Source: Candidatus Binatia bacterium (GTDB taxonomy: Bacteria; Desulfobacterota; Binatia; UBA9968; JAJDTQ01). From it: a stretch of DNA of 64,000 nt. The notes under the pieces were generated by a model, which did no database searches, was not told where the DNA came from, and saw only the letters and a list, made by a program, of their open reading frames with translations. The position numbers were made by a program, and so were the translations under genes. Where the stretch lies: assembly GCA_022823055.1 (NCBI GenBank), contig JAJDXX010000235.1, positions 1,308 to 65,307 on the forward strand. The letters run 5' to 3'. Shown piece by piece: positions 31,403 to 35,946 of this stretch. How positions within the stretch are numbered: position 1 is the first letter of the stretch; each line of letters opens with the position of its first letter.

Positions 31403-32185
31403 TCATTCCATCAGGCCGTTGTCCCGCAGGAACTCGATGACGAAGGCGTCGAATCCCGCGGGATCCTCGATGCAGCAGGCGTGACCCGTTCCGGGCAGCA
31501 CCCGGTGCACCGCCCCCGGCGTCAGTGCCGCGGTCTTCCGGCCGCCTTCCAGGGACATGTCGTGCTCGCCGTTGATGACCAGGGTGGGCACCTTCATCTC
31601 CGAGAGGCGCGGGGTCATGTCGGTGCCGCCACGGGCATGGAAGATCTGGGCGATGGACTTGCCCGAAAGCCACGGGTTGCGCTCAAGGAAGACGTCCAGA
31701 AGGTACTTGCCGAGCCGGGTGCTCTCGAAGCCCGGCGCCACCAGTTCCTTGATGTGCTTCCCGTGATAGGTGCTCACATCGTCCGTGTAGCCCGCGATGC
31801 GGTCGCCGATGCGCCCGCCCCCGCCGCTGCTTCCGCCCACCAGGATCACGGCCCGGAACATCTCCGGATGGTCGAGGCCCAGGAGCAGCGCGATGCCCGA
31901 CCCCACGCTGACGCCGCCGATGATCGCTTCCGTGACGCCTTCCGCCCGGCACACCGCAAGCACGTCGCCCGCCATGTCGCCCAGCGAGAACGGCGTCTCC
32001 GGCTTGTCCGACCGGCCGTAGCCCCGGATGTCCAGCGAGATCACCCGGAAGTACGTCGAGAAATGGGCCACCTGGTACATGAGGAGGTTGTGGTCGAACG
32101 GGTTGGCGTGCACCCAGATGAAGGGCAACCCCTCTCCGGACACCTCGTAGTAGATGCGGACGCTGTCGGAATCGGCATAAGGCAT
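31403..32185 (-). CDS. Alpha/beta hydrolase (intact copy)
   Basis: Inner start MPYADSDSVRIYYEVSGEGLPFIWVHANPFDH... ...ISLDIRGYGRSDKP..., nucleophile elbow ...GGVSVGSGIAL..., ...PGTGHACCIEDP... Confidence 0.85.
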   Translation of the reverse strand: MPYADSDSVRIYYEVSGEGLPFIWVHANPFDHNLLMYQVAHFSTYFRVISLDIRGYGRSDKPETPFSLGDMAGDVLAVCRAEGVTEAIIGGVSVGSGIALLLGLDHPEMFRAVILVGGSSGGGGRIGDRIAGYTDDVSTYHGKHIKELVAPGFESTRLGKYLLDVFLERNPWLSGKSIAQIFHARGGTDMTPRLSEMKVPTLVINGEHDMSLEGGRKTAALTPGAVHRVLPGTGHACCIEDPAGFDAFVIEFLRDNGLME

Positions 32186-32280
32186 GGAAAACCTCAATTC
32201 GTTCCAACCACGAAACCCGGCACACTGCAAACGGAGCAGTGATCCGGACCGATCCATCCAAATCATGCTATAATGGTCCC

Positions 32281-32451
32281 ATGACGACTGCCGAAAGCGT
32301 CCAGCTCGACAAGTGGCTGTGGGCGGCGCGCTTCTTCAAGACGCGCTCGCTCGCAGTCGAGGCCGCGCCTGGATCCAGGCCGCCCCTTCCGGGAGCGCGG
32401 CGACCGGCCCAGCAAGAAGGACCGCCGGGACCGGATGCGCTTCGCACGTGA
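32281..32451 (+). pseudogene. hslR (S4-domain heat-shock protein 15) remnant with an internal deletion
   Basis: MTTAESVQLDKWLWAARFFKTRSLA matches the intact copy at 35557. After this the DNA jumps to the 3' part of the gene (compare ...ggatccaggcc...ttccgggagcgcggcg...aagaaggaccgc... with 35840-35930) in a different frame. Confidence 0.7.
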
Positions 32452-32534
32452 GGATTGACGCCCATCCCTCTGCCGAACGCGCTTCTCCGCCGGCGCTTTC
32501 CCGAAATCGGATCCTGTCAGCGGGAGGAAACAGC

Positions 32535-33590
32535 ATGGCTTCTTTCGAGGTGAAGGTTTACCGGATTCAGGTCGAGGAACATCCGAACGCGGATGCCCTG
32601 GAGCTGGCCCGCGTGGGCGGGTACGTGAGCCTTGTCAAGAAGGACTCATTCTCGACCGGAGACCTGGCGGTTTACATTCCCGAGGCGTCCATCGTTCCCG
32701 AGGACGTGATTCAGGAACTCGGGCTCGAGGGCCGCCTGGCCGGGAAGGCGAAGAACCGGGTCAAGGCAATCAAGCTTCGCGGCGTCCTGTCCCAGGGCCT
32801 GGTCTACCCCGTGACGGGGAACCGCCTCCACGGGGTTCCCGTGAGCGAGGGCGACGACGTGATGGAGGCTCTCGGCGTGGAGAAGTGGGAGCCCCCGATC
32901 CCGGTCCACTTGTCCGGCAAGGTGCAGAATTCTCATGGGGCAACGCTTCACTACGACATCGAGGACATCAAGAAGCATCCGGAGGTCTTCAAGGCCGGGG
33001 AAGAGGTGGGAGTCACGGAGAAGATCCACGGGACCTGGTGCTGTCTCGGCTGGAATCGGGAGCGCGGGCCGATCGTGGCGTCGAAGGGGTTGTCCTCCCA
33101 AGGGTTGTCCTTCAAGGTCGAGGACCCGGACAACGCGGACAACCTGTACGTCCGGACGTGGAAGGAGTACGGGGACGTCGTAAGGCGGCGGGCAGAGGAC
33201 CTGGGCCGGTCGGTGTACGTCCTGGGGGAGATCTTCGGCCGTTCGGTCCAGGACCTTCGATACGGCGAGAAGGCGCAGGCGTTCGCCGTCTTCGACGTGT
33301 ACGTCGGAGACCCCGGTTCCGGCAGGTATCTAACCTGGTCCGAGGTGCTGGAGTTCGCGGGCGAGGACTTCCCGATGGTTCCGGCCCTGTATCGGGGTCC
33401 GTTCGATGAAGGACTTGTCCCCGGTTGGACCACCGGCAAGACCCTGTGGGGGGACAGGGTCGACCAGATGCGAGAGGGGGTCGTGATTCGGGATTGCGCC
33501 GAAGGGCGGGATTACGAGATCGGGCGGCGGATCCTCAAGAGCGTTTCCGAGGGTTATCTCCTGCGAAAGGGAGGAACGGAGTTCAACTAA
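32535..33590 (+). CDS. ATP-dependent RNA ligase, DRB0094/Rnl5 type (N-terminal OB-like domain + nucleotidyltransferase domain)
   Basis: GGGAGGAAACAGC-ATG at 32535; the track ORF N-extension is rejected. MASFEVKVYRIQVEEHPNADALELARVGGYVSLVKKDSFSTGDLAVYIPEAS... plus the lysine-nucleotidyl motif ...VGVTEKIHGTW... 351 aa. Confidence 0.8.
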   Translation: MASFEVKVYRIQVEEHPNADALELARVGGYVSLVKKDSFSTGDLAVYIPEASIVPEDVIQELGLEGRLAGKAKNRVKAIKLRGVLSQGLVYPVTGNRLHGVPVSEGDDVMEALGVEKWEPPIPVHLSGKVQNSHGATLHYDIEDIKKHPEVFKAGEEVGVTEKIHGTWCCLGWNRERGPIVASKGLSSQGLSFKVEDPDNADNLYVRTWKEYGDVVRRRAEDLGRSVYVLGEIFGRSVQDLRYGEKAQAFAVFDVYVGDPGSGRYLTWSEVLEFAGEDFPMVPALYRGPFDEGLVPGWTTGKTLWGDRVDQMREGVVIRDCAEGRDYEIGRRILKSVSEGYLLRKGGTEFN

Positions 33591-35223: not shown

Positions 35224-35224
35224 T

Positions 35225-35542
35225 CTATTGCATCAACCCATTGTCCCGCAGGGAACTCCATGACCAGGGCGTCGAACACGGGTTGCGCTCCAGGAAGATG
35301 TCCAGCAGGTATTTTCCCAGCCGGGTGCTCTCCAAACCCGGCGCCACCAGCTCCTTGATGTGCTTCTCGTGATACGTTGTCACGTCGTCCGTGTAACCCT
35401 CGATGCGGTCGCCGGTGCGCCCTCCCCCGCCGCTGCTTCCACCCACCAGGATCACGGCCCGGAACCTCTCCGGATGGTCCAGCCCCAGCAGCGCGGTTGG
35501 GTCGTTCCAACCACGAAAACAGCCGCACTGCAAACAAACCAT
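35225..35542 (-). pseudogene. Alpha/beta hydrolase remnant (decayed duplicate of 31403-32185 with two internal deletions)
   Basis: ...LLGLDHPERFRAVILVGGSSGGGGRTGDRIEGYTDDVTTYHEKHIKELVAPGLESTRLGKYLLDIFLERNP... is about 85% identical to the middle of the intact copy. The N-terminal (nucleophile) and C-terminal thirds are missing. Confidence 0.75.
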
Positions 35543-35556
35543 GCTATAGAAGCGGC

Positions 35557-35946
35557 ATGCCGGACAACGAGAACGTCCGCCTGGACAAGTGGCTGTGGGC
35601 CGCGCGTTTCTTCAAGACACGCTCGCTCGCGGCCGCGGCTGCCCAAGGCGGCAAGGTCCAGATCGGTGGTGACCGCGCCAAGCCGGCCCGGGCCGTTCGC
35701 GTCGGGGACGAACTGCAGATCCGGCGCGGCCCCTACGAGTGGGCGGTGACGGTCAAGGGCCTGTCGACAAGGCGAGGTCCCGCCAAGGAGGCCGCACTGC
35801 TCTACGAAGAGACCGAGGAAAGCGTGCGCAACCGGGATGCGGCGCGCGCCCGGATCCAGGCCGAAGCAACTCCCTTCCGGGAACGCGGCGGGCGCCCCAC
35901 CAAGAAGGACCGCAGGGACTGGGCGCGCTTGGCATCGGACGACTAG
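35557..35946 (+). CDS. hslR: Ribosome-associated heat-shock protein Hsp15 (S4 RNA-binding domain), intact copy
   Basis: MPDNENVRLDKWLWAARFFKTRSLAAAAAQGGKVQIGGDRAKPARAVRVGDELQIRRG...AALLYEETEESV...KKDRRDW aligns along its length with E. coli HslR. -10-like TGcTATAGA lies 6 nt upstream of the ATG and there is no SD. Confidence 0.9.
   Translation: MPDNENVRLDKWLWAARFFKTRSLAAAAAQGGKVQIGGDRAKPARAVRVGDELQIRRGPYEWAVTVKGLSTRRGPAKEAALLYEETEESVRNRDAARARIQAEATPFRERGGRPTKKDRRDWARLASDD

Follow-up and report, generated by a model that had tools for sequence, protein, structure and literature searches.

Two versions of a four-gene hydrolase-hslR locus joined tail to tail in a sponge-associated Candidatus Binatia genome, with reciprocal loss of redundant genes

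Introduction

The window analysed here is a stretch of 64,000 nucleotides (nt) from a sponge-associated Candidatus Binatia bacterium (contig JAJDXX010000235.1), the relatives of which are uncultivated symbionts of sponges and corals. At 31403-35946 it carries two copies of a unit that consists of an alpha/beta-hydrolase gene (hyd) and hslR, the gene of an Hsp15-like S4-domain protein, and between the copies lie a predicted RNA ligase gene (lig) and a predicted SulP anion transporter gene (SulP). This arrangement raises the question of how the same unit came to stand twice at one locus, and whether the two genes between the copies were inserted there. A previous reading of the letters alone (hereafter the sequence-only reading) had proposed the Campbell-type integration of a circular element by a single crossover, after which one copy of each gene was lost in a complementary way. 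Here, we report that the window contains two versions (alpha and beta) of one four-gene locus, which meet tail to tail at the 3′ ends of SulP and lig and were probably brought together from different lineages. The alpha version comes with its lig and the beta version with its SulP, and the cores of the two versions are in direct orientation.

Two Copies of the hyd-hslR Unit and Their Reciprocal Decay

The locus and its two anchor genes comprise the following features:

29271-31301, plus strand: Abhydrolase_10-family gene, the left anchor (Pfam PF20091, E 4e-42), syntenic in about 20 Binatia genomes
31403-32185, minus strand: hyd-alpha, an intact alpha/beta-hydrolase of 260 amino acids (aa) (Pfam Abhydrolase_1/6)
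32186-32280, no strand: divergent promoter region, copy 1 (putative function), with repeat block 32199-32232, kept in relatives
32281-32451, plus strand: hslR-alpha stub, 56 aa, recognized by alignment to the intact hslR-alpha of relatives L001 and L002
32535-33590, plus strand: lig, ATP-dependent RNA ligase, TIGR02306/DRB0094 family (PF09414 and PF21189, N-terminal OB fold)
33591-33651, no strand: SulP/lig joint between convergent 3′ ends, 61 nt, found in other lineages too
33652-35223, minus strand: SulP/STAS anion transporter, 523 aa (PF00916 and PF01740)
35225-35542, minus strand: hyd-beta stub, 105 aa, recognized by alignment to the intact hyd-beta of L015, L017 and L013
35502-35556, no strand: divergent promoter region, copy 2 (putative function), with repeat block 35502-35535
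35557-35946, plus strand: hslR-beta, an intact Hsp15-like S4-domain protein of 129 aa (PF01479, E 8e-12)
36039-37286, minus strand: cinA-family gene, the right anchor (PF00994, PF18146, PF02464), syntenic in relatives

When 31380-32480 was compared with 35200-35960 by blastn, copy 1 (31405-32446) and copy 2 (35227-35934) were found to share five collinear blocks on the same strand, with 80-89% identity:

31405-31453 and 35227-35276: 84% identity
31671-31890 and 35277-35495: 89% identity, the best match (E 7e-77)
32199-32232 and 35502-35535: 88% identity
32292-32354 and 35568-35630: 87% identity
32361-32446 and 35841-35934: 80% identity

These blocks confirm that the hyd-hslR unit is duplicated in direct orientation, with a similarity far beyond chance. 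What the sequence-only reading had described at this level holds. The similarity is one of collinear DNA rather than of short motifs; the protein identity, put at about 85%, amounts to 90% (63/70) and 80% (20/25) in the peptide blocks quoted in its support; and the SulP ATG (35221-35223), said to abut the hydrolase remnant, lies 1 nt past the stop codon of the hyd-beta stub (35225-35227). Domain matches and alignment likewise recovered the intact hydrolase and internally deleted hslR that had been described for copy 1, as well as the hydrolase cut by two deletions and the intact hslR of copy 2.

A locus of this kind might also appear if the versions of two strains had been collapsed or chimerically joined in the metagenome-assembled genome (MAG). 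The source metagenome does hold several related strains, and low-depth contigs of sequencing run X2 that join 32195 to 35494 reveal a co-occurring strain with a single intact unit, but such an artefact is extremely improbable. In run X1, an independent short-read sponge-metagenome assembly (Logan contigs), the match is 100% over 29250-32938 and 33204-37500, i.e., across hyd-alpha, the hslR-alpha stub and lig, and across lig, SulP, the hyd-beta stub, hslR-beta and cinA. Because these contigs cover every joint, the structure is not an assembly artefact, and this explanation was rejected. The same order is also found in the complete long-read chromosomes of L015 and L017, and the same two stubs are present in strains approximately 96-97% identical to the window in three other sponge or coral runs (X2, X3 and X8).

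For each gene, exactly one copy is intact and the other is inactivated, the dead copies sitting in different units; the losses in the window are reciprocal, with hyd-beta and hslR-alpha being the copies that died. Two segments that correspond to 31454-31670 (217 nt) and 31891-32198 (308 nt) are missing from the hyd-beta stub, which leaves the middle third and, beyond what had been described, the last ~16 codons. Its deletion junctions, at approximately 35276/35277 and 35493-35496, show a microhomology of just 1-3 nt, with 2 nt at one and no more than 1-2 nt at the other. The deletions removed the nucleophile Ser motif as well as the catalytic His, and Pfam and NCBIfam searches with the stub returned no match. 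In hyd-alpha, the GxSxG nucleophile motif and the C-terminal His are both kept; its top NCBIfam match is PcaD-like, far under the cutoff of that model. A 1-nt insertion at 35251 restores the frame of the hyd-beta stub. This base is missing from the strains of runs X2, X3 and X8, so that the insertion does not count as evidence for a functional peptide, and selection on the 105-aa open reading frame (ORF), for example for translational coupling to SulP, was dropped as an explanation because the restored frame is strain-specific. The hslR-alpha stub consists of the first 25 codons, a 210-nt deletion (the equivalent of 35631-35840) and a frameshifted tail. Two copies of the 8-nt direct repeat GACGCCGC border the deletion, the junction of which falls inside 32359-32366. 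This stub had no match in a Pfam search and matches Hsp15 weakly, over residues 3-39 only. In annotation, ORFs 32281-32451 and 35225-35542 should be flagged as pseudogene stubs.

Gene Order in Related Genomes

A hyd-alpha scan with one genome per species yielded approximately 25 syntenic Candidatus Binatia loci (MAGs, many of them complete long-read chromosomes), onto which the proteins and DNA of the window were mapped. The conserved anchors Abhydrolase_10 and cinA enclose a variable interior in these relatives, and the following types of gene order, given in window orientation, were distinguished:

Type A: hyd, hslR, lig; L003, L004, L008, L009, L095
Type B: SulP, hyd, hslR; L010, L013, L016
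Type C: SulP, hyd, hslR, lig; L018, L020, L082, L083
Type 0: hyd with or without hslR only; L011, L012, L014, L019, L025, L028, L039
Type D: hyd-alpha, hslR-alpha, lig, SulP, hyd-beta, hslR-beta; the window, L015, L017, L092-L094

Two further loci (L005 and L006), in which hyd and lig are present and hslR was not detected, fall outside all types. The full single-copy form consists of two divergent operons, one running from hyd into SulP and the other from hslR into lig. Where lig is present in the syntenic relatives, it always lies immediately downstream of hslR, and SulP, where present, always follows hyd directly, to which it is linked by the TAGAATG stop/start sequence also seen in the window. 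Both genes are therefore residents of the locus rather than cargo and, since the 2.8 kb between the copies is resident DNA, the novel element is the SulP/lig junction. The idea of an inserted RNA ligase-SulP module is thus not sustained, given that lig, SulP or both flank a single hyd-hslR unit in types A, B and C.

More distant lig homologues (L096-L101, 51-55% identity) are not located beside hslR and have neighbours that include an AAA_21 ATPase and an NTP_transf_2 protein, which indicates that the hslR-lig pairing is specific to this Binatia group. Accordingly, hslR-lig as a conserved functional pair was rejected, on account of three distant lig homologues with unrelated neighbours. As a separate observation, the SulP of L010 (11075-11086, corresponding to window 34780-34926) has an internal gap of ~147 nt and an N-terminal half that matches poorly, and this gene may be decaying.

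An Old Two-Copy State Pruned Differently Among Lineages

The SulP/lig joint is also found in L015, L017, L001, L002 and L092-L094. Past the SulP stop, the first ~18-35 nt correspond to the sequence that follows SulP in single-copy relatives, and the remainder is specific to type D; the ~30-43 nt between the lig stop and this homology could not be aligned with the lig 3′ flanks of those relatives because of the divergence of these flanks. The joint-bearing lineages differ in what has been lost. In L015 and L017, hslR-beta, hyd-beta, SulP and lig are intact; in hslR-alpha, the stretch between about codon 8 and codon 88 has been lost between direct repeats of ~11 nt (GAAAGCGTSCG), and of hyd-alpha only the 3′-terminal 27 nt are left in L015 and nothing in L017. 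In L092-L094, hslR-alpha is disrupted by a 1-nt frameshift and has lost its 3′ third, and hyd-alpha lacks 487 nt internally and carries a 2.9-kb insertion. In L001 and L002, the alpha unit and lig are intact, SulP is cut to its last 57 nt beside lig (RIVDTRDEARELARRILN*), and the beta unit is gone, with an AAA_14/DUF4143 ATPase gene beside cinA.

Exactly one working copy of each gene (hyd and hslR) is present at the locus in every joint-bearing lineage, and the three hslR-alpha lesions (in the window, L015/L017 and L092-L094) are not identical, which implies that both copies were intact in the common ancestor. Comparison of these loci shows an old two-copy state that outlived speciation, being common to at least five other species-level lineages, and a redundancy that deletions removed independently in each of them. 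The suggested complementary loss of one copy of each gene is therefore strongly supported and extends to sister species. The locus gives a well-resolved natural picture of the way in which bacteria handle a redundant segment, in which a two-copy state persisted across speciation and at least four lineages pruned it differently.

The 2.9-kb insertion mentioned above (L092 668-3533, L093 458-3323) is located between the hyd-alpha stub and the promoter and contains four ORFs of 123, 223, 99 and 44 aa, for which no Pfam match is on record.

Divergence and Mosaic Ancestry

Synonymous divergence (dS) between the two copies, which had been suggested as a way to distinguish duplication from the capture of a foreign homologue, was compared with that between genomes:

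alpha against beta, hyd: 0.36-0.41
alpha against beta, hslR: 0.67-0.84
window against L015, cinA: 0.15
window against L015, SulP: 0.08
window against L015, lig: 0.12
deepest comparisons within the genus: 0.35-0.55

The hyd-alpha of the window groups with L001/L002 in 199 of 200 bootstraps. In L015/L017, hyd-beta has the single-copy hyd of L008 as its sister (dS 0.16, as for cinA), in a clade that excludes hyd-alpha in 188/200 bootstraps, and the nearest relatives of the hyd-beta stub of the window are L010, L008 and L015, with its own hyd-alpha ranking 13th. Taken together, the dS between the copies (0.36-0.84 over both genes) and the grouping of hyd-beta favour the capture of a diverged homologue over a fresh duplication.

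The flanks of the locus also differ in their affinities. The block formed by lig, hslR-alpha, hyd-alpha and Abhydrolase_10 is at a dS of ~0.33-0.5 from every non-D relative, and the D-type ligases share a long branch, at the end of which they make up a young, tight clade; for cinA, hyd-beta and SulP, non-D relatives exist at 0.16-0.19. Between 43614 and 32364, the identity of the window to L015 is 95.7%. Left of 32364, for at least 8 kb, the identity is 80-89% to L015 versus 92-96% to L001 and 89-93% to L002; the Abhydrolase_10 gene, for instance, has 94% nt identity to L001/L002 and 87% to L015. Over 20534-43614, the Abhydrolase_10 side is 90-95% identical to L001/L002 and ~80% to L015, the cinA side is 94-96% identical to L015, L017 and L008, and relative to L015 the identity is 96% (nt) for the cinA-family gene and 95% (aa) for hslR-beta. 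According to informative sites, the switch of nearest relative falls inside lig, and the region 20534-43614 as a whole is a mosaic with two ancestries.

Promoter Copies and Gene Expression

The shared upstream motif that had been noticed in both copies was found as TGCTATAAT (32266-32274) and TGCTATAGA (35542-35550), each ending 6 nt ahead of its hslR ATG, and TGCTATAGA is identical at the hslR-beta of L015. A TGnTATAAT-like element precedes the ATG by exactly 6 nt in both hslR copies and in relatives (32266-32283 and 35542-35559), and the position of this -10-like element suggests a leaderless hslR mRNA. The TGCTATAA(A/T) element and the Shine-Dalgarno sequence of lig have survived each of the three hslR-alpha deletions. 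In the hyd-beta stub, the upstream region and the SulP start region were spared and the native TAGAATG arrangement was kept. Such a sparing of regulatory parts would fit selection for the expression of lig and SulP from two promoter copies, of which copy 1 would serve hyd-alpha in one direction and lig, through the hslR-alpha stub, in the other, and copy 2 would serve hslR-beta in one direction and SulP, through the hyd-beta stub, in the other. In a metatranscriptome of a ~96% identical strain, contigs were found over the hyd-beta stub, SulP, lig and the hslR-alpha stub, with DNA carry-over being possible. The gene content of the window would then equal that of a single-copy four-gene locus with its order permuted, an indication that gene order is permutable without a change in gene content.

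Origin of the Two Copies

We consider it likely that the two copies came from different lineages and were united by recombination between diverged chromosomal haplotypes, after which the redundancy was pruned. The original SulP/lig joint would have been illegitimate, later long homologous tracts would have ended inside the locus, and the redundant copies would then have been deleted lineage by lineage, reciprocally so in the window. Fresh in-situ duplication and the insertion of a plasmid or an integrative and conjugative element (ICE) are less likely, and an ancient duplication combined with recombination, instead of capture, is possible.

The integration put forward by the sequence-only reading, in which a circular element with a hyd-hslR segment and a lig and SulP cargo entered by a Campbell single crossover and the copies then decayed in a complementary way, has the right topology, with the homologous segment repeated in direct orientation on either side of the intervening DNA. 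The divergence of the copies is large enough for separate sources, and a circularized chromosomal fragment of a type-C relative (lig-hslR-hyd-SulP) that entered a plain hyd-hslR locus would yield exactly the order observed. We nevertheless judge this integration to be quite improbable, because lig and SulP are resident beside hslR and hyd in single-copy relatives and because no trace of such an element was found: a blastn search with 31403-35946 against 72,556 plasmids returned only an 83-nt ligase match, on which a plasmid or ICE origin was rejected, and the ORFs in 29000-38500 include no integrase, replication or transfer genes. In addition, it predicts a single donor ancestry for lig, SulP, hyd-beta and hslR-alpha, but lig and hslR-alpha are ~0.4-0.5 dS from any non-D relative and SulP and hyd-beta 0.16-0.19, and the two outer flanks differ in their nearest relatives, which is not predicted for an insertion into one recipient. 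An in-situ head-to-tail duplication of a type-C block (SulP, hyd, hslR, lig), followed by random loss that left the outer SulP and lig traceless, needs no foreign source. It would produce the lig/SulP joint exactly as found, genomes of type C do exist (L018, L020, L082 and L083), and the patterns of copy loss differ among lineages. On the other hand, the dS between alpha and beta (0.4-0.8) is at least as high as the deepest divergences within the genus and 3-10 times as high as that among joint-sharing genomes; the sister of hyd-beta is the single-copy hyd of L008 rather than hyd-alpha (94% of bootstraps), and the lig and hslR of L008 are not the D-type versions. Neither an outer SulP remnant in 31302-31402 nor an outer lig remnant in 35947-36038 could be detected, and the young, tight clade of the D-type ligases also speaks against this duplication, which we regard as unlikely, if somewhat less so than the Campbell integration.

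Several points tell against the favoured recombination between haplotypes and the expression scheme that goes with it. The doubly intact intermediate is deduced, no genome with both copies intact having been found. Of the relatives with the same arrangement and both copies intact, which the sequence-only reading would have taken as a sign of ancient paralogy without insertion, the arrangement was found and the double intactness was not: a scan of metagenome contigs with lig returned only type-C relatives at 88% (L082 and L083) and distant homologues, a protein search with lig returned only three clusters at 89% or above, and context look-ups added L092-L095, none of them doubly intact; the exact lig protein of the window is not on record. 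All non-D relatives of hslR-beta are rather distant (dS at least 0.46), and this gene is a poorer fit to a native beta block than hyd-beta and SulP are. The mosaic breakpoint in lig might have arisen afterwards and independently, and recombination is so pervasive that gene trees cannot firmly order the events. With regard to expression, the -10 element of copy 2 reads TATAGA, without the conserved final T, and a consensus scan of 31300-36100 found no full sigma-70 promoter and terminators at chance level only, such a scan being uninformative for extended -10 or leaderless promoters. The promoters and the co-transcription through the stubs are likewise deduced, and the RNA evidence, which is at the level of contigs, is weak.

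Comparison with Known Systems

The locus is a merodiploid segment of the kind that bacteria can acquire by homologous or illegitimate recombination. Illegitimate recombination facilitated by homology, and homologous recombination of long tracts between related species, are known in naturally transformable bacteria. The window resembles their products in that a diverged block is contiguous with one flank and has a non-homologous joint at its other end, and in that the nearest relative switches inside the locus; it differs in that the joint predates the lineage of the window and the mechanism is deduced from sequence patterns only. The direct repeats around intervening DNA recall a merodiploid formed by Campbell integration of a plasmid or ICE, but here the intervening genes are chromosomal neighbours with neither element genes nor a plasmid counterpart, and direct repeats around a 'module' therefore need not signal the insertion of a mobile element. 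The tandem-duplication-random-loss model explains changes of gene order in animal mitochondrial genomes, and like its products the locus has a permuted order, an unchanged content and pseudogene stubs that mark the lost copies. Unlike in that model, the divergence and phylogeny of the copies argue against an in-situ tandem duplication, and the outer copies that it requires are traceless.

Divergent resolution, i.e., reciprocal gene loss after duplication, is reportedly described by the model of Lynch and Force. It is documented after whole-genome duplication in yeasts, Paramecium and fishes, and a literature search showed that work on it is almost wholly eukaryotic. Similar to divergent resolution, two redundant copies existed at this locus, of which one was kept per lineage, with a choice that differs by lineage, and the loss in the window is reciprocal between the two genes of the unit. 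In contrast to it, the duplicate is a 1-kb bacterial segment rather than a genome-wide set, the copies had probably already diverged when they were joined, and, with no independent assortment of chromosomes, incompatibility could arise only via recombination inside the locus. The retained copies do differ among congeners (alpha in L001/L002, beta in L015/L017). We therefore raise, as a tentative and rather doubtful idea, that the locus acts as a bacterial form of divergent resolution that affects gene flow, and that the window went through loss, re-duplication by recombination and renewed loss. If so, a crossover between such genomes in the lig that they share would give either a two-copy recombinant, maybe the ancestor of the window before reciprocal re-pruning, or a product without intact hyd or hslR at the locus, which would probably be selected against. 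In any case, the locus is a well-documented example of a known evolutionary process and implies no new mechanism or function.

Encoded Proteins and Neighbouring Elements

lig is assigned to the RNA ligases of the DRB0094/TIGR02306 family by a TIGR02306 score of 226.2 bits (cutoff 151.15), PF21189 and PF09414 representing its OB and nucleotidyltransferase domains. SulP is assigned to the SulP anion transporters on the basis of PF00916 (165.8 bits) and PF01740 (44.1 bits), i.e., a Sulfate_transp domain and a C-terminal STAS domain; the subfamily models BicA, DauA and TIGR00815 all scored under their cutoffs. hslR-beta reached 45 bits with PF01479 (cutoff 22.8), and 112.8 bits with NF007673 over 122/133 positions, under the cutoff of 148.

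Several other elements were observed around the locus. Between the convergent stops of hslR-beta and cinA, a perfect AT-rich palindrome, GTGGGTAAAATAGCCGCTATTTTACCCAC (35968-35996), occurs once in the window. It is found at the same boundary in relatives, directly upstream of the AAA_14/DUF4143 ATPase gene where that gene is inserted (e.g., L008 and L002), and could be a terminator, an operator or a recombination site. On the other side, a hairpin element at 31308-31370 (core hairpin 31315-31343) lies between Abhydrolase_10 and hyd-alpha. Although it occurs once in the window, its metagenome contig depth is 5-6 times that of its neighbours and many contigs break there, which identifies it as a dispersed repeat of the genome or the community. 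Toxin-antitoxin genes that are present only in some relatives lie close to both anchors: a pair of RelE (PF06296) and helix-turn-helix genes beside cinA (37323-38007), and a BrnT toxin gene beside Abhydrolase_10 (28809-29099), in a stretch of low GC content (~58-60%). Finally, ~110 nt at 38389-38500, at the edge of the next gene, match L001, L010 and L018 in both orientations and are therefore an inverted or palindromic dispersed repeat.

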